DNA from: a phage
Sequence record: PZ445439.1
DNA length: 64,000 nucleotides
Reading direction: 5' to 3' (one strand)
Of the stretch, positions 7,159-58,883 are shown piece by piece. Numbering within the stretch: the stretch's first letter is position 1; every line of letters begins with the position of its first letter. Below the pieces are notes generated by a model that saw only the letters and a program-made list of their open reading frames with translations, made no database searches and was not told the DNA's origin. A program made the position numbers and the translations under genes.

Positions 7159-8746
<1,588 letters not shown>

Positions 8747-8773
8747 AATAAAATGGGCCTTGCGGCCCACTCC

Positions 8774-9276
8774 TTAAAAATATTTTTTAAAACTCATCAT
8801 AACTTTATCATCAACATCATTATCAATCTGTGCAACAAGATAAGATGACAGTTCTACTTCTTGTGGCGCGGATTGAACATTATCAGAATTAAGATATTCA
8901 CGAATCCAAGGATATGGGTGTTTAACCGGAGCATCGGTAATTGGGCATGGAAGACCACACTGTTTCATACGAGATACAGTTAAGTAATCAATAAAGCTCC
9001 ACATGTTATTTGTATTTAATCCAGGAACATCGCCATCTTTAAATAAATGAACTGCCCAATCTTTTTCTTGGCGGTTAACTTCCATGAAAATATCAACTGC
9101 TTCTTGTTCACACTCTTGAGCAATTTTAACCCATTCATCGCCATCAGTGCCAAGTTGAAGTTGACGAATAATATATTGAGTGCCTTTAAGGTGAAGCTGT
9201 TCATCACGTGCAATGAACTTCATAATCTTGGCATTGCCTTCCATGATTTCCATATTCTTGTGGAAGTTAAAGGTAC
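8774..9276 (-). CDS. nrdB: ribonucleotide reductase small subunit, exon 2 (join with 10368..11043)
   Basis: encodes ..TFNFHKNMEIMEGNAKI.. R2 region; exon boundary inferred from codon arithmetic and terminal G of intron. Confidence 0.85.
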
Positions 9277-16172: not shown

Positions 16173-16196
16173 TCAAAAGGGAGACCGAAGTCTCCC
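16173..16196 (-). terminator. intrinsic terminator after gene 32 (GGGAGAC-UUCG-GUCUCCC then U tract)
   Basis: stem-loop with UUCG tetraloop followed by UUUUG, 7 nt after gene 32 stop. Confidence 0.55.
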
Positions 16197-20163: not shown

Positions 20164-23100
20164 ATGGCCGACATCAAACGTAAGTTCAGAGCCGAAGACG
20201 GTCTGGACGCCGGTGGCGACAAGATTGTTAACGTAGCATTAGCCGACCGTACAGTAGGTACTGATGGCGTAAACGTTGACTTCCTGGTACAAGAAAACAC
20301 CGTTCAAGTATATGATTCTACGCGTGGATATAACAAAGGATTTGTTGTTCTTTATGACAACCGTTTATATCAAGCAATAAATGATATCGTGTCTCCTTCC
20401 GGGGCATTTAACCTTTTACAATGGCGTGCAGTTCGTACCGATGCACAATGGATAACTGTCGCTTCTGGGACTTATCAACTTTCTTCAGGTGAATCGATTT
20501 CGGTTAACACTGGTGCCGGCAATGATATGGTTTTCACGTTGCCAAATACGCCGGTTGATGGTGATACTGTTGTTTTGGCTGATATTGGTGGAAGAACCGG
20601 GACAGTTAAAGTACAGATTAACGCGTCTGTGCAGAGTATTTTAAACTTTAGAGGTGAACAAGTTCGTACAGTTTTAATGACGCGCCCACGTTCACAACTA
20701 TTGTTTGTGTTTAGTAATCGTTTGTGGCAGATGTATATTACCGATTATGGTAAAGAATCAATCACTGTTACACCTGCGACACCATATCAAGCACAAGCAA
20801 ATGATTTTATCGTTCGTCGTTTTACTAGTGCAGCACCAATCAACATTACACTTCCACGTAATGCTAACAATGGTGATATAATCAGCCTAGTCGATTTAGA
20901 TAGATTAAACCCACTATATCATACAATTGTTAAAACATTTGATGATACAACGTCTATTGGTGAAGTCGGGACTCATATTGCCGAAGGCAGAAATGACTCT
21001 GACGCGTTTTTTGTTTTTGATGCTGCAAATAGTTTATGGCGTATATGGGAAGGCGACCAGAAATCGCGTCTTCGTATTATCCGTGCGGATTCAAATATTC
21101 GTCCAAATGAAGAAGTTCTTATTTTTGGCACAAATAACGCTACAGCCGGAACTATTAATCTTACGCTGCCTTCCGGAATTTTGAGTGGTGACACTGTTAA
21201 AATTTCAATGAACTACATGCGTAAAGGCCAAACAGTAAAAATTAAAGCTGCCGAAGGTGATACAATTGCTTCTTCTGTTGCATTGCTTCAGTTCCCTAAA
21301 CGTTCTGAATATCCACCTGATGCTCAATGGGTCTCTGTTACTGAACTAGAATTCAATGGCACTACTTCATATGTTCCTGTATTAAAATTAGCATATATCG
21401 AAGACACCGTTGCTGGTACACGTTATTGGGTTGTTCAACAAAACGTCCCAACTGTAGAACGTGTTGATGCTGGAACTGATGCTACACGAGCTCGTTTAGG
21501 TGTTATTGCTCTTGCTACTCAAGCGCAAGCAAATGTTGATTTAGAGAATACTCCAGCTAAAGAAGTTGCTATTACTCCGGAAACATTGGCAAATCGTACA
21601 GCAACTGAAGCTCGACGTGGTATCGCTAAAATTGCCACAACAGCACAAGTTAACCAGAATTCCACAGCATCATTTGTGGACGATACTATTGTTACGCCTA
21701 AAAAACTAAATGAGCGTACAGCAACTGAAACTCGTCGCGGTCTTGCTGAAATTGCTACTCAGGCCGAAACCGATGCCGGTCTTGATGACACAACGATTAT
21801 TACACCTAAGAAATTGCAGGCACGTCAGGGCTCTGAAACACTATCTGGTATAGTTAAATATGTATCAACTACTTCTGCTACTCCTGCTGAAACTCGTGGA
21901 ACCGCAGGCACTAACGTTTATAATAAAACCGTAAATAATTTAACTATTTCTCCTAAAGCCCTTGACCAATATAAAGCAACTTATGCTCAACAAGGTGCGG
22001 TAATTTTAGCTGTTGATAGTGAAGTAATTGCTGGTCAATCACAAGCAGGTTATTCTCATGCTGTAGTAACTCCTGAAACACTACATAAGAAAACTTCTAC
22101 TGATGGACGTATTGGTTTAATTGAAATTGCTACGCAAGCAGAAACTAATGCTGGGACTGATTATACACGCGCAGTAACACCTAAGACGTTAAATGATAGG
22201 AAAGCTACGGAAGGATTATCCGGCATAGCCGAACTTGCTACGCAAGTTGAATTTGATACTGGAACTGATGATACTCGTATCTCGACTCCACTGAAAATTA
22301 AAACTCATTTTGATTCTTCTGACCGTACCAGTGTTAATTCTGATTCCGGACTTATTGAAGAAGGAACCTTGTGGAACCATTATACTCTTGATATTTCTAA
22401 AGCAAATGAAACACAACGCGGTACACTTCGCGTAGCGACACAGGCAGAATCTAATGCAGGAACTTTAGATGATGTTCTTATTACTCCTAAAAAGCTTTTA
22501 GGGACTAAGTCCACTGAAACGTCTGAAGGCGTAATTAAGGTTGCTACTCAGGCTGAAACTGTAACAGGAACTTCTGCTAATACTGCTGTATCTCCTAAGA
22601 ATTTAAAATGGATTGTCCAGAAAGAACCAACATGGGCTGCTACTACAGCAATTCGCGGATTCGTTAAAACTTCATCCGGTTCTATTACATTCGTTGGTAA
22701 TGATACAGTCGGTTCTACACAACCTTTAGAATCATATGAGAAAAATAGCTATGCAGTATCACCATATGAATTAAACCGTGTACTTGCTAACTATTTGCCA
22801 TTGAAAGCTAAAGCCGTAGATAGTAATTTATTAGATGGCCTAGATTCATCTCAGTTCATTCGTAGGGACATTGCACAGACGGTTAATGGTTCACTATCCT
22901 TAACCCAACAAACGAATCTGAGTGCCCCTCTTGTATCAACTAGTACTGCTACGTTTGGTGGTTCAGTTTCGGCAAATAGTACATTAACTATTTCTAACTC
23001 TGGAACAGCTACTCGTCTGATTTTTGAAAAAGGACCTCAAACTGGAACTAACCCAGCACAGACGATGACTATCAGAGTTTGGGGAAATGAATTTGGCGGT

Positions 23101-24039
23101 GGTTCAGATACAACACGTTCTACTGTATTTGAAGTTGGCGATGAAACATCTAATCACTTTTATTCTCAACGTAATAAAGCCGGGAATATAACGTTTAGTA
23201 TCAATGGTACTGTGATGCCAATAAATGTTAACGCTTCAGGCACGTTAAATGCGAATGGCGTTGCAACATTTGGTCGTTCAGTTACAGCCAATGGCGAATT
23301 CATTAGCAAGTCTGCAAATGCTTTCAGAGCAATTAGTGGTGATTACGGATTCTTTATTCGCAATGATGCTACTAACACCTATTTTATGCTTACTGCATCA
23401 GGTGACCAGACTGGCGGATTTAATGGATTACGTCCTTTAGCTATTAACAATGCATCTGGTCAAGTAACGATTGGTGAAAGCTTAATCATTGCTAAAGGTG
23501 CTACTATAAATTCAGGTGGTTTAACAGTTAACTCAAGAATTCGTTCTCAGGGTTCTAAAACTGCTGATTTATACACTCGTGCTCCTACTGCTGATACAGT
23601 CGGATTCTGGTCAATTGACGTCAATGATTCAGCTACATATAACCAATTCCCGGGTTATTTTAAAATGGTTGAAAAAACTAATGAAGTGACTGGACTTCCA
23701 TACTTAGAGCGCGGTGAAGAAGTTAAATCTCCTGGTACGCTGACTCAGTTTGGTAACACACTTGATTCGCTTTACCAAGATTGGATTACTTATCCAACGA
23801 CGCCAGAAGCGCGTACCACTCGCTGGACACGTACATGGCAGAAAACCAAAAACTCTTGGTCAAGTTTTGTTCAGGTATTTGATGGAGGTAACCCTCCTCA
23901 GCCGTCTGATATCGGTGCTTTACCATCTGATAATGCTACAATGGGGAATCTTACTATTCGTGATTTCTTACGAATTGGTAATGTTCGCATTGTTCCTGAC
24001 CCAGTGAATAAAACTGTTAAATTTGAATGGGTTGAATAA
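20164..24039 (+). CDS. 34: gp34 long tail fibre proximal subunit
   Basis: 1291 aa, repetitive fibre sequence, first gene of 34-35-36-37-38 operon. Confidence 0.95.
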   Translation: MADIKRKFRAEDGLDAGGDKIVNVALADRTVGTDGVNVDFLVQENTVQVYDSTRGYNKGFVVLYDNRLYQAINDIVSPSGAFNLLQWRAVRTDAQWITVASGTYQLSSGESISVNTGAGNDMVFTLPNTPVDGDTVVLADIGGRTGTVKVQINASVQSILNFRGEQVRTVLMTRPRSQLLFVFSNRLWQMYITDYGKESITVTPATPYQAQANDFIVRRFTSAAPINITLPRNANNGDIISLVDLDRLNPLYHTIVKTFDDTTSIGEVGTHIAEGRNDSDAFFVFDAANSLWRIWEGDQKSRLRIIRADSNIRPNEEVLIFGTNNATAGTINLTLPSGILSGDTVKISMNYMRKGQTVKIKAAEGDTIASSVALLQFPKRSEYPPDAQWVSVTELEFNGTTSYVPVLKLAYIEDTVAGTRYWVVQQNVPTVERVDAGTDATRARLGVIALATQAQANVDLENTPAKEVAITPETLANRTATEARRGIAKIATTAQVNQNSTASFVDDTIVTPKKLNERTATETRRGLAEIATQAETDAGLDDTTIITPKKLQARQGSETLSGIVKYVSTTSATPAETRGTAGTNVYNKTVNNLTISPKALDQYKATYAQQGAVILAVDSEVIAGQSQAGYSHAVVTPETLHKKTSTDGRIGLIEIATQAETNAGTDYTRAVTPKTLNDRKATEGLSGIAELATQVEFDTGTDDTRISTPLKIKTHFDSSDRTSVNSDSGLIEEGTLWNHYTLDISKANETQRGTLRVATQAESNAGTLDDVLITPKKLLGTKSTETSEGVIKVATQAETVTGTSANTAVSPKNLKWIVQKEPTWAATTAIRGFVKTSSGSITFVGNDTVGSTQPLESYEKNSYAVSPYELNRVLANYLPLKAKAVDSNLLDGLDSSQFIRRDIAQTVNGSLSLTQQTNLSAPLVSTSTATFGGSVSANSTLTISNSGTATRLIFEKGPQTGTNPAQTMTIRVWGNEFGGGSDTTRSTVFEVGDETSNHFYSQRNKAGNITFSINGTVMPINVNASGTLNANGVATFGRSVTANGEFISKSANAFRAISGDYGFFIRNDATNTYFMLTASGDQTGGFNGLRPLAINNASGQVTIGESLIIAKGATINSGGLTVNSRIRSQGSKTADLYTRAPTADTVGFWSIDVNDSATYNQFPGYFKMVEKTNEVTGLPYLERGEEVKSPGTLTQFGNTLDSLYQDWITYPTTPEARTTRWTRTWQKTKNSWSSFVQVFDGGNPPQPSDIGALPSDNATMGNLTIRDFLRIGNVRIVPDPVNKTVKFEWVE

Positions 24040-24047
24040 GAGGTATT

Positions 24048-25163
24048 ATGGAAAAATTTATGGCAGAGTTTGGACAAGGATATGTCCAAACGCCATTTTT
24101 ATCGGAAAGTAATTCAGTAAGATATAAAATAAGTATAGCGGGTTCTTGCCCGCTTTCTACCTCAGGACCATATGTTAAATTTCAGGATAATCCTGTAGGA
24201 AGTCAAACATTTAGCGCAGGTCTTCATTTAAGAGTTTTTGACCCTTCAACAGGAGCATTGGTTGATAGTAAGTCATATGCTTTTTCGACTTCAAATGATA
24301 CTACATCAGCGGCTTTTGTTAGTTTCATGAATTCTTTTTCAAGCAATAGACTTGTTGCTATATTAACTAGCGGAAAGGTTAATTTTCCTCCTGAAGTAGT
24401 ATCTTGGCTAAGAGCTGCAGGAACGTCTGCTTTTCCATCTGATTCTATATTGTCAAGATTCGACGTATCATATGCTGCTTTTTATACTTCTTCTAAAAGA
24501 GCTATCGCACTAGAACATGTTAAACTGAGTAATAGAAAAAGCACAGATGATTATCAAACTATTTTAGATGTTGTATTTGACAGTTTAGAAGATGTTGGAG
24601 CTACCGGGTTTCCAAGAAGAACGTATGAAAGCGTTGAGCAATTTATGTCAGCGGTTGGTGGAACTAATAACGAAATTGCGAGATTACCAACTTCATCCGC
24701 GATAAGTAAACTATCTGACTACAATTTAATTCCTGGCGATGTTCTTTATCTTAAAGCACAACTATACGCTGATGCTGATTTACTTGCTCTTGGAACTACG
24801 AATATATCCATTCGTTTTTATAATGCATCTAATGGATATATTTCCTCGACACAAGCTGAGTTTACCGGAAAAGCTGGGTCTTGGGAATTAAAAGAAGATT
24901 ATGTAGTTGTTCCAGAAAACGCCGTGGGATTTACGATATATGCGCAAAGAACTGCAAAAGCAGGTCAAGGTGGTATGAGAAATTTAAGCTTTTCTGAAGT
25001 GTCAAGAAATGGAGGTATTTCGAAACCTGCTGAGTTTGGCGTCAACGGCATTCGAGTTAATTATGTCTGTGAATCCGCTTCACCTCCGGATATAATGGTA
25101 CTTCCTACGCAATCATCGTCTAAAACTGGTAAAGTATTTGGGCAAGAATTTAGAGAAGTTTAA
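24048..25163 (+). CDS. 35: gp35 long tail fibre hinge protein
   Basis: 371 aa, position after gene 34. Confidence 0.9.
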   Translation: MEKFMAEFGQGYVQTPFLSESNSVRYKISIAGSCPLSTSGPYVKFQDNPVGSQTFSAGLHLRVFDPSTGALVDSKSYAFSTSNDTTSAAFVSFMNSFSSNRLVAILTSGKVNFPPEVVSWLRAAGTSAFPSDSILSRFDVSYAAFYTSSKRAIALEHVKLSNRKSTDDYQTILDVVFDSLEDVGATGFPRRTYESVEQFMSAVGGTNNEIARLPTSSAISKLSDYNLIPGDVLYLKAQLYADADLLALGTTNISIRFYNASNGYISSTQAEFTGKAGSWELKEDYVVVPENAVGFTIYAQRTAKAGQGGMRNLSFSEVSRNGGISKPAEFGVNGIRVNYVCESASPPDIMVLPTQSSSKTGKVFGQEFREV

Positions 25164-25168
25164 ATTGA

Positions 25169-25192
25169 GGGAGCCTTCGGGTTCCCTTTTTC
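25169..25192 (+). terminator. intrinsic terminator after gene 35 (GGGAGCC-UUCG-GGUUCCC then U tract)
   Basis: stem-loop with UUCG loop followed by TTTTTCTTT. Confidence 0.55.
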
Positions 25193-25194
25193 TT

Positions 25195-25202
25195 TATAAA
25201 TA
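25195..25202 (+). promoter_or_regulatory. late promoter TATAAATA for gene 36
   Basis: exact TATAAATA about 24 nt upstream of gene 36 ATG. Confidence 0.55.
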
Positions 25203-25225
25203 CTATTAAAATAAAGGGGCATACA

Positions 25226-25888
25226 ATGGCTGATTTAAAAGTAGGTTCAACAACTGGAGGCTCTGTCATTTGGCATCAAGGAAATTTTCCATTGAATCCA
25301 GCCGGTGACGATGTACTCTATAAATCATTTAAAATATATTCAGAATACAATAAACCACAAGCAGCTGATAACGATTTCGTTTCTAAAGCTAATGGTGGTA
25401 CTTACGCCGCGACTGTTCGATTTAATGGAGGCGTACATGTTCCTACTATAGGTAGTAGTCAACAGTGCGGCGTTTATCCAGGCAACGGTGATGCAGCTAC
25501 TTTTGCTATGGCAAATATTGACATCGTTTCGTGGAATGGTATTGGTTTTAAATCATCACAAGGTTCAGCAGACCGAACTGTTGTAATTAATGCACGTAAT
25601 GGTGATATTAGTACAAAAGGCGTCGTGACAGCAGTAGGTCAAATAAGAAGTAATGCAGTTTCTCCTGTAGCAGCGAATGACCTAACTCGCAAAGATTATG
25701 TTGATGGAGCAATAAATACTGTTACAGCAAATGCGAACTCTAGAGTGTTACGATCTGGCGACACTATGACGGGTAACTTAACCGCACCAAACTTTTTTTC
25801 GCAGAATCCTGCATCTCAACCTTCACACGTTCCACGATTTGACCAAATCGTAATTAAGGATTCTGTTCAAGATTTCGGCTATTATTAA
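25226..25888 (+). CDS. 36: gp36 long tail fibre distal connector
   Basis: 220 aa, position and size as T4 gp36. Confidence 0.9.
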
Positions 25889-25896
25889 GAGGACTT

Positions 25897-28800
25897 ATGG
25901 CTACTTTAAAACAAATACAATTTAAAAGAAGCAAAACCGCAGGTGCACGTCCTGCTGCTTCAGTATTAGCCGAAGGTGAATTGGCTATAAACTTAAAAGA
26001 TAGAACACTTTTTACTAAAGATGATTCAGGAAATATCATCGACTTAAGCATTTCTGCTGGCGGTAGTATCAGTGGAAATATCACTCAAACTGGTGATTAT
26101 TTACAAAATGGAACATATAATCTTAATGGAAACCAGTTTGTTTATGCAGGAAAATATATTGAATTTTTACCTAAAACTGCTGGTAATGGTGCTTGGGCAA
26201 ATCAACACCTAAATAAAGCTCCTATTTTTACGGATTTAAGTTCAACTACTTCCGTTTCAGAATACCATCCGCTAATTAAGCAGCGTTATAAAGATGGGAC
26301 TTTTTCAGCGGGTACATTGGTTGCTGAAGGAAGTTTTAAGATTCATTACATCAATGAATCTGGGGATTCGAAATATTGGACTTTTAATCGTAATGGTAAT
26401 TTCCAAGTTGACACAGGCGATTTATTTGTCAGCAAAGGTAATATTTCCGCTTCAGGCAATATTAATTCAGCTACTGGAATAGTTTCTGCTCCACAGATTA
26501 ATACAAAAACCATAGTTTTTGATACAAAGGCATTCGGACAATACGATTCGCAGTCATTAGTTCAATATGTTTATCCTGGAACAGGTGAAGAAAATGGTAT
26601 AAACTATCTTCGTAAAGTTCGAGCTAAATCAGGCGGAACTATTTACCATGAAATCGCTTCAGCTCAAACCGGTAAGAATGATGAAATTTCTTGGTGGACT
26701 GGAAATTCGCTTACTACTAAATTAATGGGTCTTCGTAATGATGGCGCAATGGTATTACGTCGTTCACTTGCTATTGGCACAATTACCGCTGATGAAAATA
26801 CTAACAACTATGGTTCTCCTACTCCAATGGGAGAAAGATATATTGCTTTGGGTGATGCTGCAACCGGTTTAAAATATATTAAGCAAGGTGTTTATGATTT
26901 AGTAGGTAATTGGAATTCTGTTGCTTCTATTACTCCTGACAGTTTCCGCAGTACTCGCAAAGGTTTATTTGGACGTTCAGAAGACCAAGGCGGAACCTGG
27001 ACAATGCCTGGAACGAACGCTGCTCTCTTGTCTGTTCAAACCCAGGCAGATGTGAATAACGCAGGCGATGGTCAAACCCACATTGGATATAATTCTGGCG
27101 GTAAATTTTCCCATTATTTCCGCGGTAAAGGCCAAACCAACATTAATACGCAGGAAGGTATGGAAATTAACCCTGGTATTTTGAAATTGGTAACTGGCTC
27201 TAATAACGTACAGTTTTATGCTAATGGAACAGTATCTTCAATACAAAGAATTAAATTTGATAACGGATTAGTTCTTACTGGTGCTAGACCTGATGGTATT
27301 CAACTTGATGCGCCTACATCAGTAGATGGCACTAAAACTATACTGTGGGCTGGTGGTACTCGCGCAGGTCAGAATAAAAGTTATGTATCTATTAAAGCGT
27401 GGGGTAATTCATTTAACGCATCTGGCGATCGCACTCGTGAATCAGTTTTTGAAGTAGCTGATGGACAAGGTTATTATTTTTATGCGCAACGTATAGCTCC
27501 TGCACCAGGTTCAACAACTGGAGTAATTCAATTTAGAGTTGCTGGAGCATTATTAACCGGTGGTGGTATTACATCATCTGGTTCTATTGTTACTGAATCA
27601 AGTTTAGTTGCAAATAATGGATTATCTGTAAATGGTCAGGCTAAATTTGGTGGAACGGCAGATGCATTAAGAATTTGGAACGCTGAATATGGTGCTATTT
27701 TCCGTCGTTCAGAAGCATCATTACATATTATCCCGACTCCTAAAGATGCTGGTGAAAGTGGTGGAATAAGTAATCTCCGCCCGCTTAGTATTAGCCTTAA
27801 TAATGGTATGGTGCAAATGCGTCATTCTGTTACGTTAGGCGATGATGGTGCAGGCGGTAATATGGTGACGGTTGATAATGATTCTAAAGTTATGGTAATG
27901 ACGACTAATAGCCGTATTAGTCCTAACTTCCGTATGCAAATTGGACAGTCGTCTTATATTGATGCTGAATGTACTAATGCTGTTAGACCGGCTGGCGCAG
28001 GTTCTTTTGCTTCGCAAAATAATGAAAATGTTCGTGCTCCGTTCTATATGAATATTGATAGAACTGATACTAGTACATATGTTCCAATTGTTAAACAGAG
28101 ATATGTGCAAAATAATAGTTGCTATTCTATCGGTACTTTAATTAATGGTGGTAATTTTAGAGTTCATTATCATGAAGGTGGTGATGGCGGTTCTACTGGC
28201 GCGATTATAAAGGATTTAGGTTGGGAATTTAATAAAAACGGTGATTTTTACTCTCCTGGTAAATTAGGTGCTGGTAATGTTCGTATTGGTACTGATGGTA
28301 ATATCACGGGGGGTTCATTACCTAACTTTGCTAACTTGAACTTGACATTAGATCGTAAAGTCAATACCCGAATGGTTTCTTATTCAGGTACTGGCGGTTG
28401 GTACAAATTAGCCACTGTAACAATGCCACAATCCACTTCAACCGTCACATTCGAAATTGCTGGTGGTAATGGCTATAATGTTAACACCCCACACCAATGC
28501 GTTACTTCGAAAATTGTTTTAAGAACTTCGAACAATAACCCGAAAGGTATTAATGCTGTTGTTTGGTCGATGGATACCGATCAGGGTATTAAGAATGTTG
28601 CAACGGTTAATACATCAGGCGATGTTTATGACATCTATGTAAACGTTGGTACTTATGCTCAGGCGTTAGCAGTTTCTTATTATGCTACTCCTAATGCTAC
28701 CATTAACCAGGTATTTGCAACGGACCAACCGGGTGCAACAGAAACTGCGGTTGAACTTCCTGAGACGGCTATTCAAGGACAGGTTGCTAGTGTTCTGAAT

Positions 28801-29805
28801 AACTTGGCTCTTACCCCGAACGGTGTAAAACGTTATGAAGCCGATTCTGAAATAGCTATTAATAGCCAAACTGGCATTCGTATTAGAAGCAACAGCGATA
28901 AAACTGGTTCTGTTGCTACAATGCTACGAAATGATGGTGGTAGTTTTTATATTCTGTTTACAGATAAAAATGCCACCGATGGCGCAGCAACTGTTAATGG
29001 TGATTGGAATAGTAAACGTCCTTTCGCAATTAACTTAACAACCGGCGAAGTGCTAATGAATAACGGCATAGCTGTTCGCAGCGCTGCTTTATTCTATAAT
29101 AGCATAAACGTCAAAGATAATGGTTCTATTAACTTTGATAAGTCCGGAGCTAACCCAAGAAATATGAGAATATTTCATGCTGGCGATGGCACTCGTGGTA
29201 ATCGCATTGAAATTGCCGATGAAACTAACTATATTGCTTACTTCCAAAAATTACCTGGTGGTCAAAACCAAGTTTCATTCAATAGCGCTACACTTTCTGG
29301 ATTAACACAGTGTAATCAATTTGGTGTTAACACAACAAACGCACTTGGTGGAAACAGTATAACATTTGGTGATACCGATACTGGTATTAAGCAAAATGGC
29401 GATGGATTATTAGACATATATGCGAACAACGTACAAGTGTTCCGTTTCCAAAACGGTGATTTGTACTCATACAAAAATATAAATGCTCCAAACGTTTATA
29501 TTCGTTCTGATATTCGTTTAAAATCCAACTTTAAGCCTATCGAAAATGCACTTGATAAAGTTGAAAAACTTAACGGTGTCATTTACGATAAGGCTGAATA
29601 CATCGGTGGAGATGCAATTGAAACTGAAGCGGGTATTGTGGCTCAAACGTTACAAGACGTTTTACCAGAAGCTGTCCGTGAAACAGAAGACAGTAAGGGT
29701 AATAAAATACTCACTGTTTCTTCTCAAGCCCAGATTGCTCTTCTAGTTGAAGCTGTGAAAACACTTTCTGCTCGTGTAAAAGAACTCGAATCTAAACTTA
29801 TGTAA
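25897..29805 (+). CDS. 37: gp37 long tail fibre distal subunit, T2-type with C-terminal intramolecular chaperone domain
   Basis: 1302 aa; conserved N-terminus; C-terminal ..[17 protein letters not shown].. chaperone-like domain. Confidence 0.95.
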
Positions 29806-29835
29806 AAGAGGGCTTCGTCCCTCTAAGGATTTTTA

Positions 29836-30618
29836 ATGGCAATTGTAGGTGTTCCTGGCTGGATTGGTGAATCTGCCGTGAATGAAACTGGACAACGTTG
29901 GATGGATGCTGCAATGAGAGCAGTCCGTGTTTCAGTTCCTGGTTGGATGAGCTCAATGGCTGGGCAATCTAAAGAGATTCATTATAGCATTGGTGCTAGT
30001 AATTCTTATAATAAAGACACATTAATAAACTGGATAAAAGCCCAAGGAAGTACTCCTGTTGTTATTACTATTACAGGAAATATTGTTTCTCAATCTACTG
30101 GTGTTCCGTGTCTGGATTTCCCTAGTTCGTTGACCAATGCATATGTTACGTTGATCATTAACTCTGGCGTGACTGTCTATGGACGTGGGGGTAATGGTGG
30201 TAGTAACGCTGCCGGTGCTGCTGGTGGTAACGCAATTAATAATGGCATCGGTACACGCTTGCGTATTACGAATAATGGTGCAATCGCTGGCGGCGGCGGC
30301 GGCGGTGGCGGCGGTAACAGGGGTAAACTAATATTTGGTGGTGGCGGTGGTCGCCCATTCGGTGCTGGTGGGTCTTCCTCTCATATGAGTTCCGGTGCAA
30401 CTGCTGGTACTATTTCCGCTCCTGGTAAAGGATCTGTTGGTGAGGGGTCTCTTAGCGCATATACAGGCGGTGCGGGCGGTAACGTTGGTGCTGCTGGAGG
30501 AAGATGTAATACCCAAGGTAACGGTACAGAATATAACGGCGGCGCAGCTGGTAAAGCTGTTACCGGTAATGCTCCAACTTGGACTAAAGTTGGTACAATA
30601 TATGGTTCAAGAGTATAA
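29836..30618 (+). CDS. 38: gp38 tail-fibre tip adhesin, T2-type, with glycine-rich motifs
   Basis: 260 aa with conserved N-terminus and poly-Gly blocks (GGGGGGGGGN.., FGGGGGRPFGAGG). Confidence 0.85.
   Translation: MAIVGVPGWIGESAVNETGQRWMDAAMRAVRVSVPGWMSSMAGQSKEIHYSIGASNSYNKDTLINWIKAQGSTPVVITITGNIVSQSTGVPCLDFPSSLTNAYVTLIINSGVTVYGRGGNGGSNAAGAAGGNAINNGIGTRLRITNNGAIAGGGGGGGGGNRGKLIFGGGGGRPFGAGGSSSHMSSGATAGTISAPGKGSVGEGSLSAYTGGAGGNVGAAGGRCNTQGNGTEYNGGAAGKAVTGNAPTWTKVGTIYGSRV
30289..30316 (+). repeat. (GGC)n-type trinucleotide run encoding poly-Gly in gp38
   Basis: near-perfect GGC/GGT repeats seen directly. Confidence 0.6.
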
Positions 30619-30649
30619 TTTTGAATAAATATCCTTAAAAGGAGGGTCT

Positions 30650-31306
30650 ATGGCAGCACCTAGAATATCATTTTCGCCCTCTGATATTCTGTTTGGTGTT
30701 CTAGATCGCTTGTTCAAAGATAACGCTACCGGGAAAGTTCTTGCTTCCCGGGTAGCTGTCGTAATTCTTTTGTTTATAATGGCGATTGTTTGGTATAGGG
30801 GAGATAGTTTCTTTGAGTACTATAAGCAATCAAAGTATGAAACATACAGTGAAATTATTGAAAAGGAAAGAAATGCACGCTTTGAATCTGTCGCCCTGGA
30901 ACAACTCCAGATAGTTCATATATCATCTGAGGCAGACTTTAGTGCGGTGTATTCTTTCCGCCCTAAAAACTTAAACTATTTTGTCGATATTATAGCATAT
31001 GAAGGAAAATTACCTTCAACAATAAGTGAAAAATCACTTGGAGGATATCCTGTTGATAAAACTATGGATGAATATACAGTTCATTTAAATGGACGTCATT
31101 ATTATTCTGACTCAAAATTTGCTTTTTTACCAACTAAAAAGCCTACTCCCGAAATAAACTACATGTACAGTTGTCCATATTTTAATTTGGATAATATCTA
31201 TGCTGGAACGATAACCATGTACTGGTATAGAAATGATCATATAAGTAATGACCGCCTTGAATCAATATGTTCACAGGCGGCCAGAATATTAGGAAGGGCT
31301 AAATAA
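30650..31306 (+). CDS. t: holin T
   Basis: 218 aa, N-terminal TM segment, matches recalled T4 holin. Confidence 0.9.
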   Translation: MAAPRISFSPSDILFGVLDRLFKDNATGKVLASRVAVVILLFIMAIVWYRGDSFFEYYKQSKYETYSEIIEKERNARFESVALEQLQIVHISSEADFSAVYSFRPKNLNYFVDIIAYEGKLPSTISEKSLGGYPVDKTMDEYTVHLNGRHYYSDSKFAFLPTKKPTPEINYMYSCPYFNLDNIYAGTITMYWYRNDHISNDRLESICSQAARILGRAK

Positions 31307-31591: not shown

Positions 31592-31744
31592 TCAATTAGT
31601 TGACTTTGTTATAATATCATCAGACGCTTGATTTGTAAACTGGTCTGTGGTATTTTCTTCAAAAATTTTTTCTACGAATTCCTTGAACGACTCACGTTCC
31701 TGAGCTACATTATGCTCGATTACTTTTTCAAGATTATGACTCAT
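31592..31744 (-). CDS. small acidic hypothetical protein, about 50 aa (below ORF-track cutoff)
   Basis: ATG overlapping arn stop (ATGA); open frame read by eye. Confidence 0.35.
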   Translation of the reverse strand: MSHNLEKVIEHNVAQERESFKEFVEKIFEENTTDQFTNQASDDIITKSTN

Positions 31745-34130: not shown

Positions 34131-34156
34131 AAAAAAGGGAGAGCCTCGGCTCTCCC
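34131..34156 (-). terminator. intrinsic terminator (9 bp inverted repeat GGGAGAGCC/GGCUCUCCC then U tract)
   Basis: perfect palindrome followed by U run on minus-strand RNA, just after small ORF 34162..34311. Confidence 0.5.
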
Positions 34157-35939: not shown

Positions 35940-36020
35940 TCACTGGCGTCCGAAGACGCCTTTAGTTTTAAGATTATTACGATAGAACTGCATCACGTGT
36001 TCGTTGTGGAAATTACTCAT
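35940..36020 (-). CDS. stp: Stp peptide (26 aa)
   Basis: translation [26 protein letters not shown] matches recalled T4 Stp; ATG shares one base with ndd stop. Confidence 0.7.
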
Positions 36021-36478
36021 TAATATGCCTGCAAAACAAATTTAAAGTTATCAGCCAACATACGGTTAATTTCTTCAAGTGTTTGATACTCAGAATGATG
36101 ATTACGAGTAAACGCTAAAGCTAACTGTCCTTTTCCAAATCCCGTCGTCAGAGGTTTCATCTTAGAAGCAGGCAGATAAAATACTGTGTATGGAACATTG
36201 TTATTTGCAATAGTACGTGCAAGCTGAGACCGACGTTGACGAATATGACTTAGAACTGCGCTGAATCCTTGCTTAGAACGTTGATTACCTACATAAAATC
36301 GTGCAGACACACATGGATTACTAAATGGACGACCATCTAATTTACTTACTAAAAAGTAAAATCCAGGTTTAGATAAAATATCTTTATGTGGAACTCCCAA
36401 AAACCATTCACCACCCTTGATTGTACCAATAACAGTTGCGCCTGCATTGTTCAGATCAGTAACAGTCATATATTTCAT
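36020..36478 (-). CDS. ndd: Ndd nucleoid disruption protein
   Basis: about 152 aa from internal Met (MKYMTVTDL..), matches recalled T4 Ndd. Confidence 0.85.
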
Positions 36479-36538
36479 ATTAATTTCCTCTAAATTATTT
36501 TCTACTCCAAGGCCGCATGAATACACACGGCCATTAAA

Positions 36539-36754
36539 TTAATCGTCGCAGTCGACGCTCAATTCCCAAAACTCTTCTACGGTATAAGTTTCAGTATCAT
36601 TTTCAATACAGAAACGTTCATTACTGTTATTTGCTAAAGTAGCGTTAACTGTCATTTTTTCGATAGTGCTCTTAAGAGGTGAAATACGAATTAACTGATC
36701 ACCGTTATCTAAACAAAAAATTTCACCAACTTTTACATCTTTAAAACTTTTCAT
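36539..36754 (-). CDS. hypothetical protein, 71 aa
   Basis: track ORF, ATG start. Confidence 0.45.
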   Translation of the reverse strand: MKSFKDVKVGEIFCLDNGDQLIRISPLKSTIEKMTVNATLANNSNERFCIENDTETYTVEEFWELSVDCDD

Positions 36755-36869
36755 AATTCACCTCAAGGAGTATAAAATCCGAATGCAGTTGTTGACCATC
36801 CCATCCAATGCGGAAAATTTGCGCCAATGTAAAACATAAGAATATAAAACCAACCGCTCAGCAAATTCA

Positions 36870-37067
36870 TTATTTTACACCATTCCAAATTGTTTCAACC
36901 ACGGATTTTAAACCATTCTGGTGAATATCAATTCCGACTACTGTCATCAAATAGATTCCAACTACAACTGAACCTAATGCAAAAATCAGCATGAAAATGA
37001 ATAAAGCCGGAAAAATATTATCGAAAAACCATTCAATAAATGTAAAAGCACTGCGTTTACGCTTCAT
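36870..37067 (-). CDS. small membrane protein, about 65 aa (internal Met start)
   Basis: GAGGAAAAT-ATG site at internal Met; hydrophobic core. Confidence 0.4.
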   Translation of the reverse strand: MKRKRSAFTFIEWFFDNIFPALFIFMLIFALGSVVVGIYLMTVVGIDIHQNGLKSVVETIWNGVK

Positions 37068-37074
37068 ATTTTCC

Positions 37075-37188
37075 TCACATAAATCCAAAGTAAGCGTTTA
37101 ATACATCAATCATTAAAACGATTGGGAATATACTCAAAACTACTAGTATTATAACTACATTCCATATAGCTTTAACAATCTTTTTCAT
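37075..37188 (-). CDS. small membrane peptide, about 37 aa (internal Met of track ORF 37075..37323)
   Basis: GGAGGAACAGAAA-ATG site; single TM helix; an early-type promoter lies within the upstream track extension. Confidence 0.35.
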   Translation of the reverse strand: MKKIVKAIWNVVIILVVLSIFPIVLMIDVLNAYFGFM

Positions 37189-37216
37189 TTTCTGTTCCTC
37201 CGTAGTTGATAGGGTA

Positions 37217-37246
37217 ATAGTACCACAGAGGAACAGTCTTGTAAAC
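37217..37246 (-). promoter_or_regulatory. early-type promoter candidate (GTTTAC, 18 nt, TACTAT)
   Basis: motif pair plus conserved downstream CCTATCAACT element. Confidence 0.35.
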
Positions 37247-37431
37247 AACTTTTTTAAAAATATTCGTAATAAATGTGAATACCAATCACTACTGCCGAAA
37301 CTTGCGCAACCCACCATGCACAAGCAATAAGTACAGAATTCAAAATTTTCATAATAACCTCATCACAAAAGTAAATGTTAAACAAATTAATGGAATACTA
37401 ATTAACCAAACAAAACACCACCATAATGAAC

Positions 37432-37695
37432 TCATAATTCAATCTCAGCGATTTTCATTTCATTACTATTAATAGCCTCTTTAAGACTATCTAAAAGAAT
37501 TACATTCCAGTGGTCATTCATATGACCATTAACTAAGCGTGTAATTTCTTCAGGAGTTGAAAAATAAGGCTGATCAGACTCCCAGTGCGATAATCCTAAG
37601 CGGGTATAAATCATACCTTCATCATCACTAGAATATTCAACTGACACAAACTCATCAGTTGTTTTATGTTTAGCGTAATAAAATTTAAATTTCAT
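37432..37695 (-). CDS. hypothetical protein, about 87 aa (internal Met start)
   Basis: track ORF begins at upstream non-ATG codon; ATG at Met-4. Confidence 0.45.
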   Translation of the reverse strand: MKFKFYYAKHKTTDEFVSVEYSSDDEGMIYTRLGLSHWESDQPYFSTPEEITRLVNGHMNDHWNVILLDSLKEAINSNEMKIAEIEL

Positions 37696-37700
37696 TTTAT

Positions 37701-37907
37701 TCAATAATCCGCTAAAAGATCGACGATTGCATCACGAAGACATTTATTCGCAATACGTTTAAGAGCAATTTCAGTTTCAGGCGCATTTCGAATAATCATT
37801 GAATTCAATTCAGCTTCGGCAAACTGAAGTTCTTTGACTAATTCAGCTTTATATTTTCCTTGACCTTTCTTAGCTTTTGCTCGTTTTAATTCAGCTGTAG
37901 TAAACAT
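37701..37907 (-). CDS. hypothetical basic protein, about 68 aa (internal Met start)
   Basis: ATG downstream of promoter candidate 37942..37971. Confidence 0.4.
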   Translation of the reverse strand: MFTTAELKRAKAKKGQGKYKAELVKELQFAEAELNSMIIRNAPETEIALKRIANKCLRDAIVDLLADY

Positions 37908-37941
37908 TTTGTTCTCCAAATCCGTATCAGTTGATAGGGTA

Positions 37942-37971
37942 ATAGTACCACAGTCCTTGTGGTATGTAAAC
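37942..37971 (-). promoter_or_regulatory. early-type promoter candidate (GTTTAC, 18 nt, TACTAT)
   Basis: near-duplicate of the 37217..37246 element, including the 25 bp AGTTGATAGGGTAATAGTACCACAG repeat. Confidence 0.35.
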
Positions 37972-37987
37972 CATTTTGTGAAAATTT

Positions 37988-38545
37988 TTAAATGGAAAGA
38001 TACCATCCGTTGTAGTTACTTTTTCTTACAACCTTACGAAGGTCTTCTCTATCACCAATGAACTTCGGAGTGTACTGGATGACACCTGGATGAATTTCTT
38101 TAGTGTTGAATATAATTATACAGTCTGCGACCTGATGATTCAGAATGGGCCCTAGATTTATTCCAGAACCGTATGGATACTCTCCACTGCATCCTGTTGT
38201 TACCGAAATCCAACGAGAGTCAGTTTGATGTGTTTTGACTTCTACTCGAAGCCCGCAGTATTTTGGATGTGCCAAAACATCCCATGCATATGTATACGGG
38301 TCATCGACATCTTCTTGACCTTTGTTAACATATCCACTTAACCAATCTGCTACAACATACTCGGCATACACTGCGATACGGCATCTTTCGATAACTTCTG
38401 CCTTATCCTGATTTGGATTTTGCTTTAAAGAATATCTCGCAGTATCAGCAATTTTGACCTTCATTTCACTAGTCAAGTCACCGTTCGATAGGGTAAATGT
38501 CGGAATCTGAAATAGTCTCTGTAACCCCGGATTCGTTTTCTGCAT
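37988..38545 (-). CDS. denB: endonuclease IV-like protein (denB position)
   Basis: 185 aa, size and position between ndd and rIIB as T4 denB; sequence not verified from memory. Confidence 0.6.
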   Translation of the reverse strand: MQKTNPGLQRLFQIPTFTLSNGDLTSEMKVKIADTARYSLKQNPNQDKAEVIERCRIAVYAEYVVADWLSGYVNKGQEDVDDPYTYAWDVLAHPKYCGLRVEVKTHQTDSRWISVTTGCSGEYPYGSGINLGPILNHQVADCIIIFNTKEIHPGVIQYTPKFIGDREDLRKVVRKSNYNGWYLSI

Positions 38546-38807
38546 TTAGACTTTCCTTTTTACCACTAAGATAAGCGTTATACACTTTAAGAGTACCATA
38601 GTAAATTCGATCATTTTCATCTAAAGAATTATGATCAAGTTCATCGAGTTCCTTTTTATCCATGACTATAACATCATTACAGTAAAGAAACCCAAGTTTT
38701 TCGTGACCAAACTCAAATTTATTGCAGTACACAATGTTAGCGTGATGATTTCCGTGTAGTTTAATCTCTTTTATGTCGGAATCACCGATATTCATACAAT
38801 AAATCAT
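38478..38807 (-). CDS. hypothetical protein, 109 aa (3' end overlaps denB-like ORF by about 68 nt)
   Basis: track ORF, ATG start; unusually long overlap lowers confidence. Confidence 0.35.
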   Translation of the reverse strand: MIYCMNIGDSDIKEIKLHGNHHANIVYCNKFEFGHEKLGFLYCNDVIVMDKKELDELDHNSLDENDRIYYGTLKVYNAYLSGKKESLNAENESGVTETISDSDIYPIER

Positions 38808-38820
38808 AATTCACCTTAAA

Positions 38821-38840
38821 ACAAAAGGGCCGAAGCCCTT
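38821..38840 (-). terminator. intrinsic terminator (AAGGGC-UUCG-GCCCUU then UUUUGUUUU)
   Basis: hairpin and U tract immediately after stop of ORF 38839..39033. Confidence 0.5.
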
Positions 38841-38854
38841 ATTTAAATTGTTCA
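38825..38854. repeat. direct repeat copy A (about 30 bp: hairpin plus ..EQFK-encoding 3' end)
   Basis: AAGGGCCGAAGCCCTTATTTAAATTGTTCA, same sequence as 39051..39080. Confidence 0.6.
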
Positions 38855-39033
38855 ATTCTTTTCTCTAGACATTCAGCATAAGATTTCATTGAGATAAACT
38901 GTGAAAGCAGTAATTCTTGTTCAACTTCATTAACCGTTAGAAACTTCGTGCTTTCTAAAAATTTGCCCAGTGCATTAATTTTGAGCATTAATTGTTCGTA
39001 TTCTTCTTTTACTCGTGCTTGATAACCTAGCAT
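38839..39033 (-). CDS. hypothetical protein, 64 aa, between denB-like gene and rIIB
   Basis: track ORF, ATG start with AAGGA site; C-terminus ..EQFK shared with rIIB through the direct repeat. Confidence 0.45.
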   Translation of the reverse strand: MLGYQARVKEEYEQLMLKINALGKFLESTKFLTVNEVEQELLLSQFISMKSYAECLEKRIEQFK

Positions 39034-42432: not shown

Positions 42433-42462
42433 ATTATACCACATCCTTGTGGTAAAGTAAAC
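42433..42462 (-). promoter_or_regulatory. early-type promoter candidate (GTTTAC, 18 nt, TATAAT) for rIIA.1/rIIA
   Basis: consensus TATAAT -10; spacer contains dyad CCACA..TGTGG; -35 overlaps gene 39 stop. Confidence 0.4.
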
Positions 42463-52047: not shown

Positions 52048-52667
52048 TCAACTACCTCAATATCATAAACTTTAAATGTTCCAAATGAATCGTGTAATTT
52101 TTCTTTTGAAATAGAAGTTATTCTATACTTTCCAATTGGAATCATCCATTCCTGTTCACGCACAATCATCATTAAGTTATCAGTACGCTCTGAATCTAGC
52201 CCATCAGTATCTTCATACGTATACTTAAACTCAGTATTAGGAGAAGAAAGTATAATATCGCTGATATGGTCAGAATAATTAAAAGCTTTATCAGTTTTTA
52301 AGCGAAGTATTATTTTAGTAAAATATTCAGCATAAGAAAAAGAACATGCTGTGAGCAAACTAGTAGTAAATGAATCTACTCTATTCGTTGAAAACACTTC
52401 TCCAACTTGTAAATCTTTAATAAGTTCTTCTGTTGATTTTGATATACCACGATATAACTGATAAGGCGATTTAGTTAAATGCTTTTTAACGATTTTATTC
52501 AACTGCTGATGAAGAGCTTCATTCTTTTTAGCTTCCATACATTGCCAAAGAATTGACTGCTCAAAGTCAGTAAATTTTTCACAGACTTTTTTATACATAT
52601 CATATTGAAAATCAACGCTTTCAGCTTTTATAGATAACTGTTCAACATCTGCAAGATTAATAATCAT
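52044..52667 (-). CDS. modB: ADP-ribosyltransferase ModB-like (207 aa)
   Basis: R-S-E type motifs (LYRG, SFTTS, EQEWMIPIG). Confidence 0.6.
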   Translation of the reverse strand: MIINLADVEQLSIKAESVDFQYDMYKKVCEKFTDFEQSILWQCMEAKKNEALHQQLNKIVKKHLTKSPYQLYRGISKSTEELIKDLQVGEVFSTNRVDSFTTSLLTACSFSYAEYFTKIILRLKTDKAFNYSDHISDIILSSPNTEFKYTYEDTDGLDSERTDNLMMIVREQEWMIPIGKYRITSISKEKLHDSFGTFKVYDIEVVE

Positions 52668-52734
52668 GATAGCCTCCGTATACTTCAGAAGCTATCATAT
52701 CATTGTTAGGAAGGAAAGTAAACAACTTTTTGAA

Positions 52735-54840: not shown

Positions 54841-54865
54841 AAAAAAGGAATCCCGAAGGATTCCT
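54841..54865 (-). terminator. intrinsic terminator after soc (AGGAAUCC-UUCG-GGAUUCCU then U tract)
   Basis: 8 bp stem with UUCG loop and U run about 8 nt after soc stop. Confidence 0.55.
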
Positions 54866-58823: not shown

Positions 58824-58883
58824 GATAATCTCCTCAGTAGTTTATGTTTATATAGTATCTCAATTTCCAACAAAAGTAAACAG

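Follow-up and report, generated by a model that had tools for sequence, protein, structure and literature searches.

The early promoters of bacteriophage T4 consist of UP, -35, TGn and -10 elements together with 'additional regions of consensus' (Hinton 2010, PMC2988021), and in T4 relatives the sequence GTTTAC lies at -36 to -31 and C is preferred at -3 to -1 (Nolan 2006, PMC1524935). In the module called PeSL an early promoter is combined with a stem-loop, which lies between the -35 and -10 elements or overlaps the -10 element and in which G-T pairs have been marked; one PeSL stem of RB49 cut expression of a downstream lacZ about as much as rrnB T1 did (Arbiol et al. 2010, PMC2839356). The exchange of ndd.4/.5 (T4) for ORF268/269 (PST) has served to illustrate shuffling linked to PeSL modules (Comeau et al. 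2014, PMC4122927, Fig. 6A). In the RNA of the T4 genes e, soc, 49 and I-TevI, hairpins of another kind hide the ribosome-binding site (Uzan and Miller 2010, PMC3014915). Here we analyse a 64,000-nucleotide (nt) stretch of phage DNA (PZ445439.1; the whole stretch is called the window), in which an early-promoter module is repeated in the denB-ndd region and in which stem-loops are embedded in many promoters of the same family.

These sites are very probably T4-type early promoters in PeSL form, with stem-loops that would act on read-through RNA and, at some promoters, mask the Shine-Dalgarno (SD) sequence of the next gene. As such the module is already known biology, found at a published PeSL locus, and is no new kind of element. 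It has no essential difference from the T4 early promoters (PMC2988021, PMC1524935), with which it shares UP, GTTTAC, TGn, TAnnAT, a C-rich segment at -3 to -1, a position upstream of early genes on the early strand and direct orthology to T4 positions; particular to the window are a PST/RB14-type denB-ndd allele and a 4-nt patch in the upstream copy. The likeness to PeSL modules (PMC2839356, PMC4122927) covers the early promoter, its A/T-rich region, a stem-loop between -35 and -10, over -10 or further upstream, the G·T pairs, and the setting between small open reading frames (ORFs) of hyperplastic regions, tied to insertions and deletions (indels); Fig. 6A of Comeau et al. deals with the same locus. 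Unlike the stems of PST and T4, which PMC4122927 places just upstream of the promoter, most strong stems here overlap the promoter, as in RB49 and phi1.

A second difference is that the PeSL papers do not deal with translation or SD masking. The words 'translation', 'ribosome' and 'sequest' have zero matches in the text of Arbiol et al. (PMC2839356), and no description of SD masking at early promoters was found in the PeSL papers (PMC2839356, PMC4122927) or in the T4 reviews (PMC2988021, PMC3014915), the older T4 literature being outside this search. The subclass of promoters that would mask a ribosome-binding site is the only possibly new point, and it is offered as a testable hypothesis, not as a demonstrated mechanism. 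Its arrangement recalls the hairpins at e, soc, 49 and I-TevI, which cover the SD or AUG in the longer RNA, while the RNA from an internal promoter lacks the 5' arm and is translatable. However, the internal promoter there is a late one (gp55, TATAAATA) and delays expression; here it is an early sigma-70 promoter, and the predicted effect would be opposite in time, confining expression to the burst of early-promoter activity. The link is a resemblance in mechanism and not membership in that group.

Early promoters and the two module copies

The pattern GTTTAC-N17-18-TAnTAT has 11 exact matches in the window, all on the minus strand, against 0.14 expected. The original prediction had named ten minus-strand sites of this pattern; eight are exact, and three exact matches (117-145, 31611-31640 and 58852-58881) were missing from its list. 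The other two, at 42433 (TATAAT) and 59365 (TATAGT), do not read TAnTAT, yet they belong to the family according to a position-weight matrix that was built from the clear sites and covers 20 nt upstream, the -35 element, the 5 nt before the -10 element, and the -10 element itself. With this matrix 20 sites are found, again all on the minus strand, where the null is ~0.2 per strand. The enrichment is confined to the family-specific pattern and is not shared by the generic sigma-70 pattern: a generic scan of 36000-39000 gave 9 sites against 12.5 expected and was uninformative, both module promoters being among its matches.

The 20 promoters share an A/T-rich upstream region (such as aaaaaagtt or aaaattttcacaaaatg), GTTTAC, TGn and TAnnAT. 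As in PeSL modules, each sigma-70-like early promoter with its A/T-rich upstream region leads to the SD and ATG of the next ORF, at a distance of 20-60 nt and always on the early strand. The extended -10 element is well marked, with T at -15 in 90% of the sites and G at -14 in 95%; T at -17 (80%) and G at -16 (55%) are further consensus positions, and TA at -12/-11 and T at -7 are found in 100%. From -6 to +6 the modal sequence is a-g-a-C-C-T-A-T-C-A-A-C, of which CCTATCAAC represents -3 to +6. This profile, with its TGTGn and CCTATCAAC, is seen also in 62 non-redundant promoters of other T4-like viral contigs. At about -2 to +6, CTATCAAC is found with at most one mismatch in 6 of the 20 window promoters and in 26 of the 62 others; taken as a word regardless of position, CCTATCAAC shows no enrichment in the window (13 matches with at most one mismatch, 12.2 expected). 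The sequence CCTATCAACT, which had been singled out as a separate element, instead represents the discriminator and start region of the consensus, its A being the predicted start.

Most of the sites align to T4 directly upstream of early genes, namely 30.7, 30.8, cd.2, alc, frd.1, rnh, asiA, motA, ndd.4, ndd.6, rIIA.1, the cef region, motB, motB.2, srd, modB, mrh.2, sp and dmd; the alignment of the frd.2-region site (P16147) is merely fragmentary. One of them, P3849, is orthologous to the 'early promoter Pe133295 between cd.2 and cd.3' named in the T4 record. With these orthologies, and with the window belonging to a T4 relative, the proposed assignment to the T4 early-promoter family is borne out. 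Unmodified host sigma-70 RNA polymerase would read the sites in the first minutes of infection through UP, GTTTAC, TGn and TAnnAT, and transcription would start at the A of CCCTATCAAC, the family's consensus discriminator/start region; this reading of promoters and starts is based on established T4 knowledge and on orthology.

The two module copies would be neighbouring members of this family in the denB-ndd region, flanking a swappable 725-bp cassette, and with their stem-loops they would be PeSL modules in the sense of Arbiol et al. 2010 and Comeau et al. 2014. Both read GTTTAC-18-TACTAT, equivalent to TTTACA-17-TACTAT. The upstream one, P37971, has the best matrix score of the window (39.4) and also appears in the generic sigma-70 scan as TTTACA-17-TACTAT with TG; it is orthologous to T4 at ~167.05 kb and is present as well in PST, RB14, ime09, CE1 and relatives from IMG/VR, and by its place in the consensus its transcript would begin at A37935. 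P37246 scores 38.2, and its T4 orthologue, at ~166.77 kb, lies upstream of ndd.4.

A 25-nt block, AGTTGATAGGGTAATAGTACCACAG, occurs exactly at 37204-37228 and at 37929-37953 on the minus strand. The original prediction had recognised these two identical copies, giving end coordinates that were one too high. No further copy was found in the window with up to three mismatches, and none (0) is expected. The block is the core of a 61-nt direct repeat with 72% identity and a spacing of 725, and its upstream copy spans -18 to +7 of P37971. In nine of nine sampled relatives the denB-proximal promoter reads TACTATacaaCTATCAACT, and only the window has tacc; it is this variant that makes the upstream copy identical to the downstream copy over 25 bp. 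The identity is therefore family consensus plus a 4-nt patch, and the patch suggests, from the small sample of nine relatives, a short conversion between the two modules. A scan of IMG/VR for exact patterns of denB-proximal promoter variants returned 3 contigs, too few to date the patch. Such patches of identity between modules would be plausible substrates for the recombination that shuffles the cassette.

Stem-loops embedded in the promoters

When read-through transcripts were folded, a check that had been suggested for these sites, strong stems appeared at nine promoters, whose regions fold with z of -3.45 to -6.55 relative to shuffles. Counting two weak spacer dyads, 13 of the 20 window promoters have an embedded stem and so the stem-loop of a PeSL module; three further promoters have a separate upstream terminator alone, and P537 has both an embedded stem and a terminator. 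The -10 hexamer lies within inverted repeats with arms at 3811-3822/3827-3838, 46109-46128/46132-46151 and 59342-59356/59363-59377, three places where such repeats had been predicted, and likewise at 145, 15697 and 46747.

The pairing is specific to each promoter's own flank. In a comparison that keeps the promoter consensus intact, each spacer was paired with the 45 nt that follow its own promoter and, for contrast, with the downstream stretches of all the others. For the window promoters the mean was -12.1 kcal/mol for cognate pairs and -7.85 kcal/mol for non-cognate pairs, a difference reached in 0 of 20,000 permutations (p<5e-5). The result was replicated with the 62 non-redundant promoters of other T4-like contigs (-11.7 versus -7.6 kcal/mol, p<5e-5, no permutation as low), where 47% of cognate and 8.6% of non-cognate pairs reached -12 kcal/mol or lower. 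The stems also have a strand. Among their 184 pairs 27 are G·U, and in 11 of 11 cases the sense strand folds more stably than the antisense, with a mean difference of 5.7 kcal/mol as against 1.7 kcal/mol in shuffles (p=0.0005).

The architecture persists where the arms are different. At motB.2 the arms are TTCCTCGGTTAGTTGTGG/ACACCATAGCTACTGAGGA in T4-like phages and TTCTCCTCATG/CATGAGGAGAA in RB69-like contigs, in the same arrangement; at motB they are GGGACC/GGTCCC and GAGAGCC/GGCTCTC, respectively, and the one-sided variants GGTCCT, GGGATC, GAGGGCC and GGCTCTT are all compatible with wobble pairing. The RB69-like orthologue of the ndd.4-like promoter has other arms (CTCCATTA..TAATGGAG), and the RB69-like counterpart of the modB promoter reads ATGACCTC..GAGGTCAT. 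Across 45 loci downstream of gene 41, which come from many genera, the stems around the -10 element are of at least five unrelated kinds and share one register, that of the dmd promoter. (A locus search with Alc returned near-identical relatives only, and the cross-genus comparison covers promoters other than those of alc, 30.7, 30.8 and cd.2.) Together, cognate pairing, strand bias and conservation with different arms demonstrate that the stems within promoters are under selection as RNA structures of the sense strand and are conserved across Tevenvirinae. The suggestion that the dyads act as hairpins in read-through transcripts, a role that Arbiol et al. 2010 (PMC2839356) put forward, and tested in part, for the stem-loops of PeSL modules, thus gains support from stability relative to shuffles, own-flank specificity, sense bias and conservation of structure across genera.

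The place of the stem follows the room available. Where the upstream stop codon abuts the -35 element, the promoter itself contains the stem; with 42-56 nt free, a separate canonical GC-rich hairpin with a tetraloop and a U-tract stands upstream of the promoter. The U-tracts of the four terminators of this kind (Table 1) run into the A/T-rich UP region of the promoter, and one sequence may serve both functions. A scan of the whole window against Rfam found no family. In the T4 record, 14 nt at NC_000866 133300-133313 (L004 8301-8314) are noted as the 'inverted complement of previously reported sequence'; Pe133295 is restored by this correction. By homology the corrected stretch lies at the orthologue of the P3849 stem-loop (window 3811-3838), around the loop between the inverted-repeat arms, the kind of spot at which one would expect a sequencing artefact caused by a hairpin, or else a real inversion.

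The dyad CCACA..TGTGG, said in the original prediction to occupy several spacers, is present in only two early-promoter spacers (37948-37962 and 42439-42452) and is the least convincing of the dyads. Exact copies number four in the whole window against 0.13 expected, two of them outside early-promoter spacers. The two spacer hairpins are not unusually stable (z -1.40 at P37971, -0.48 at P42462), and TGTGG, the 3' half of the dyad, is itself the family consensus at -17 to -13 (TGTGn, extended -10). The closing pair of the P37971 dyad is broken, with no compensating change, in T4, RB14 and three relatives from IMG/VR (CGTGG); this dyad is not regarded as established. The spacer of the rIIA.1 promoter, CCACAAGGATGTGG (42439-42452), recurs at a non-orthologous promoter of distant T4-like phages, downstream of gene 41 (IMG/VR L039 5434-5485 and L040 5431-5482), a sign that promoter modules may move, or converge, as a whole. 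A spacer dyad of the form CCACA..TGTGG also lies upstream of the rnlA homologue in atgaTGCTTCCACATGGAGTGTGGTACTAT (8305-8345, minus strand), a site with the look of a T4 middle promoter (a MotA-box-like TGCTT, ~12 nt, TACTAT). It may be a case like the 'PmSL' reported for nt-1 (Comeau et al. 2014, PMC4122927).

Ribosome-binding sites in read-through RNA

The strongest structure in the interval of the two copies is the hairpin of P37246, which has a free energy of -23.2 kcal/mol (z -4.85; none of 200 shuffles was as stable), as against -16.1 kcal/mol for the antisense strand. Its 5' arm, CUGUUCCUCUGUGGU (37222-37236), consists of the spacer and the first base of the -10 element; its 3' arm, ACUACGGAGGAACAG (37192-37206), covers the SD GGAGG (37197-37201) of the ndd.4-like ORF; and its loop holds the -10 element and the predicted start at 37210. 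Because this start lies inside the loop, the promoter's own RNA would have the 3' arm alone, and only read-through RNA would be masked. Opening the stretch around the AUG (-13 to +3) is calculated to cost 0.9 kcal/mol in the own transcript and 19.6 kcal/mol in read-through RNA. Five stem positions vary among the window, T4, PST, RB14 and IMG/VR sequences; at four of them a C-G or U-A pair alternates with U·G, and the change at the fifth touches the terminal pair only.

The same reasoning holds more generally: where a promoter's own start lies inside the loop or the 3' arm, only RNA that started further upstream forms the stem, so that the stems would act on read-through transcripts. Hairpins that cover the SD or AUG are found at five window promoters, P37246, P7155 (alc), P47755 (motB.2), P52723 (modB) and P537 (30.8). 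The extra opening cost is 16.3 kcal/mol at alc, 14.6 at modB and 10.4 at 30.8, and in this class as a whole the predicted cost is 0.1-3.1 kcal/mol for the own transcript and 10.5-19.6 kcal/mol for read-through RNA, values that depend on the inferred start site. An extra cost of at least 10 kcal/mol is reached at 11 of the 66 non-redundant promoters across genera; with the 5 of 20 here, about one promoter in six would belong to the masking subclass. With a threshold of 7 kcal/mol, 16.7% of real promoters qualify as against 4.9% of promoter/leader chimeras. Of the 18 promoter-proximal genes in the window, 4 have a strongly masked start (at least 10 kcal/mol), as against 1 of the 76 that have no early promoter of their own (Fisher p=0.004).

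The one promoter-less gene with a strongly masked start is the denA homologue. Between its SD and the ATG at 8746 stands a GC-rich tetraloop hairpin, AAGGAGt-GGGCC-gcaa-GGCCC-attttatt-ATG (8746-8790, minus strand), with an opening cost of 15.6 kcal/mol. The longest ORF begins 24 nt further upstream, at GTG 8770, which AAGGA directly abuts, and its length is that of the T4 denA annotation. The hairpin could give a split start region, as in T4 genes 25 and 38, or be the terminator of the upstream gene.

From the energetics and the comparative data, we suggest that the ndd.4-like gene would be translatable from its own early transcript and masked in read-through RNA, and the alc, modB, motB.2 and 30.8 promoters would act likewise. 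There may, then, be a subclass of T4-like early promoters in which the 5' arm of a hairpin is formed by the spacer or -10 element and the 3' arm by the SD or AUG, so that the genes would be translated only from own-promoter RNA and be silent in read-through RNA; we advance this tentatively. Stems that merely enclose the -10 element would probably attenuate, terminate or stabilise upstream transcripts, by analogy with the one RB49 PeSL stem.

A set of observations weighs against reading the sites in this way. Start sites, attenuation and masking are all inferred. Seven of the 20 promoters (16147, 20122, 31640, 34105, 51387, 54831 and 58881) have no strong embedded stem, and the stem of one of the two module copies, P37971, is indistinguishable from chance. 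In the opening-cost comparison only the strong tail differs, the Mann-Whitney test of the whole distribution being not significant; and in minimum-energy folds the SD is paired to some pre-start base in 38% of real promoters and 43% of chimeras, with no cognate excess. For the 26 promoters downstream of gene 41, covariation in a fixed register was not significant (0.285 versus 0.265, reached by 76 of 500 column shuffles), in part because the consensus of spacer and start region (GATAGGG, CCCTATC) is itself complementary; in the same set 64.7% of cells are paired, as against 25-45% in slid registers and ~62% in column shuffles. Classical covariation is not claimed here. The embedded stems have no U-tract, and a reading of them as intrinsic terminators was rejected on that ground. 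Finally, G·T wobble is also tolerated in a hairpin of the non-template DNA strand, which leaves room for a role in single-stranded DNA.

The original view of PeSL, in which the stems serve only as transcription attenuators, terminators or stabilisers of 3' ends, would make the overlap with the SD a by-product of short leaders. This is possible, though somewhat doubtful. The leaders are indeed short (~22-30 nt) and offer few places for an arm of 10-15 nt, embedded stems occupy just those sites that are too cramped for a separate terminator, and both the lacZ result with the RB49 stem (Arbiol et al. 2010, PMC2839356) and the null result for the whole opening-cost distribution fit. On the other hand, every separate upstream terminator in the window has the U-tract that the embedded stems lack, and the SD-covering stems have large loops (8-15 nt), although they could have taken the more compact form, seen elsewhere, in which the stem surrounds the -10 element. 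Furthermore, SD-covering arms recur, with different sequences, at the orthologous motB.2, modB and ndd.4-like genes, and the strongly masked starts are concentrated at genes with a promoter that bypasses the stem.

It is unlikely that the inverted repeats act in DNA, as cruciforms or single-strand hairpins that are recombination hotspots or that aid or hinder promoter melting. PeSLs are tied to indels and to mini-circle formation, Arbiol et al. 2010 (PMC2839356) speculated on a recombination protein that binds stems in DNA, the denB-ndd locus is polymorphic, and the dyad axis of the stems that enclose the -10 element is fixed between -12 and -11. Yet the G·U(T) pairs become A·C mismatches on the other strand, the sense bias exceeds the effect of composition, and the readable indel junctions lie outside the stems, at SD/ATG or at AATGAAA microhomology; the fixed register is more simply explained by free sequence existing only on either side of the constrained -10 element.

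The idea that the dyads are binding sites for a protein, also raised in the original prediction, is very unlikely to hold, whether the protein is a dimeric one of the phage or of the host, for example a factor that shuts off early promoters. It could draw on the incompletely understood mechanism of early-promoter shut-off (Uzan and Miller 2010, PMC3014915), on the overlap of the dyads with core promoter elements and on the recurrence of the CCACAAGGATGTGG spacer at unrelated promoters and in distant phages. But the arms vary from promoter to promoter in sequence, length and spacing, so that no operator is shared; pairing, often dependent on G·U, is kept by wobble and by replacement of both arms; and many promoters have no dyad at all. 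With no arm sequence in common, the operator reading was rejected. The least probable explanation, that dyads and 25-bp identity are chance by-products of a strong shared consensus, can point to TGTGG and CCTATCAAC being consensus, to the CCACA..TGTGG hairpins being no stabler than shuffles and to the pairing of column shuffles of promoter alignments (already ~62%), and it is plausible for the spacer dyads of P37971 and P42462, but for the strong stems it is largely refuted by the highly significant cognate pairing in two independent sets with the consensus kept, by z down to -6.6 and by an expectation of 0 for an exact 25-nt repeat.

The denB-ndd locus and its significance

By sequence comparison the window is Tequatrovirus DNA, ~95% identical to PST, RB14 and CE1. 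Its plus strand is the T4 plus strand, and the minus strand, the T4 early/middle strand, carries almost all ORFs outside a tail-fibre block (20164-31306, plus strand). The 2.1 kb around the repeated module match 504 phage records, nearly all Tequatrovirus (T4, T2, RB14, PST and others), at 90-99% identity, and the annotated features beneath these matches are denB and the small ndd.x genes. The module sits in the denB-ndd hyperplastic region (~166-167 kb in T4), where the window is colinear with PST over 36900-38100 at 95.1% identity and has the PST allele; since this is the locus of Fig. 6A in PMC4122927, the module stands at an already published site of PeSL exchange.

The cassette between the two 25-bp copies holds homologues of PST ORF269 and ORF268 and ndd.6- and ndd.5-like ORFs. 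The mini-ORF region aligns with T4 ndd.5, and the designation of the 28-aa ORF as ndd.6-like rests on a family match and on its position beside the ndd.5-like ORF. Overlapping ATGA stop/start junctions link the ORF268 homologue to the 28-aa ORF (37432-37435) and the latter to the 32-aa ORF (37349-37352), all on the minus strand, which suggests translational coupling inside the cassette.

As in other PeSL regions, a hyperplastic location goes together with indels between close relatives, here three cassette lengths. The two promoters are 724-725 bp apart in the window, PST, RB14, ime09 and CE1, 512-513 bp apart in three IMG/VR contigs without ORF269, and 279 bp apart in T4. The ORF269 homologue is missing from T4 and from IMG/VR L005, L006 and L015. 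T4 has neither ORF268 nor ORF269; the last eight codons of ORF268 (MKIAEIEL and stop) remain after the leader of the denB-proximal promoter (T4 ~167,000-167,025, window 37432-37470). The T4 deletion junction lies at AATGAAA microhomology, which indicates that at least one indel here came about through deletion at a short homology rather than through exchange between the promoters; the readable junctions in general are at SD/ATG or at short AATGAAA microhomology, not at stems. A precise promoter-to-promoter deletion was not found with a synthetic junction query among the matches listed (40 of 497 records), in which the same size classes were seen; the full-coverage matches listed were each in two pieces.

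Table 1. Coordinates of promoters, hairpins, terminators and ORFs in the window
Feature	Position	Strand	Description
Promoter-embedded hairpin of P37246	37192-37236	minus	15 pairs (13 Watson-Crick, 2 G·U), 15-nt loop
denB-proximal early promoter P37971	37929-37995	minus	A/T-rich upstream region ~37972-37995; -35 GTTTAC 37966-37971; spacer 37948-37965; TGn and -10 TACTAT 37942-37947; predicted +1 A37935; CCTATCAACT 37929-37938
Spacer dyad of P37971	37958-37964/37946-37952 (arms)	minus	UACCACA-aggac-UGUGGUA; 7-bp stem
Second early promoter P37246	37204-37270	minus	A/T-rich upstream region ~37247-37270; -35 GTTTAC 37241-37246; -10 TACTAT 37217-37222; predicted +1 A37210
PST ORF269 homologue	37701-37907	minus	68 aa; SD GGAG 37914-37917; phrog_4535, function unknown
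PST ORF268 homologue (RB69ORF270c-like)	37432-37695	minus	87 aa; phrog_2390
ndd.6- and ndd.5-like small membrane peptides	37254-37435	minus	Overlapping mini-ORFs, 28 aa at 37349-37435 and 32 aa at 37254-37352; phrog_8851 and phrog_5011
ndd.4-like ORF	37075-37188	minus	37 aa; phrog_3098; served by P37246
30.7-homologue promoter P145	96-145	minus	Exact pattern match; -10 inside stem-loop
30.8-homologue promoter P537	475-537	minus	Exact match; spacer CCUUUGUG pairs with CACAAACAAAGG(AG) over SD; z -1.88
cd.2 promoter P3849	3811-3849	minus	-10 in loop of 12-bp stem, arms 3827-3838/3811-3822; z -3.53
alc promoter P7155	7092-7155	minus	Spacer pairs with SD region, arms 7125-7149/7099-7120; -26.1 kcal/mol, z -6.07
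frd.1 promoter P15697	15659-15697	minus	-35 GTGTAC; GAUAGGGUUAU pairs with GUAGCCCUAUC around -10; z -3.87
frd.2-region promoter P16147	16119-16147	minus	No embedded hairpin; canonical terminator upstream
rnh promoter P20122	20093-20122	minus	No stem-loop; first promoter of its unit, divergent from gene 34
asiA promoter P31640	31611-31640	minus	No strong stem-loop
motA promoter P34105	34076-34105	minus	No embedded hairpin; canonical terminator upstream
rIIA.1 promoter P42462	42433-42462	minus	Spacer dyad CCACAaggaTGTGG; z -0.48
cef-region ORF promoter P46157	46109-46157	minus	-35 ATATAC; AUCAGUAGUUGAU pairs with AUCAACUACUGAU around -10; z -4.59
motB promoter P46747	46705-46747	minus	GGGACC pairs with GGUCCC around -10; z -3.86
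motB.2 promoter P47755	47693-47755	minus	Spacer pairs with SD, arms 47731-47748/47706-47722; -23.7 kcal/mol, z -6.55
srd promoter P51387	51358-51387	minus	No strong stem-loop
modB promoter P52723	52662-52723	minus	-10 and discriminator 52686-52699 pair with SD and AUG 52665-52678; -18.0 kcal/mol, z -4.29
mrh.2 promoter P54831	54802-54831	minus	No embedded hairpin; canonical terminator upstream
sp promoter P58881	58852-58881	minus	No stem-loop here; RB69-like orthologue has one
dmd promoter P59384	59342-59384	minus	15-bp stem around -10; z -3.45
Canonical intrinsic terminators (UUCG- or GAGG-type tetraloop, U-tract)	562-587 (upstream of P537); 16175-16196 (upstream of P16147); 34131-34156 (upstream of P34105); 54841-54864 (upstream of P54831)	minus	Four in the window

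For the embedded stems of PeSL modules, the analysis is of modest added value in that it supplies quantitative, consensus-controlled evidence. For therapeutic T4-like phages, engineering and annotation are concerned alike, as moving or deleting such a promoter would alter the translation of the next gene as well as its transcription. If the masking subclass is real, starts would be masked in read-through RNA from upstream early or middle promoters, a temporal mirror image of the late-promoter hairpins of e, soc, 49 and I-TevI. The Alc, ModB, MotB.2, 30.8 and ndd.4-like proteins would then be confined to the immediate-early burst without the need for a further factor, alongside cleavage by RegB. 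Such masking bears on early shut-off: it could explain how the synthesis of some immediate-early proteins ceases despite continued transcription from upstream.

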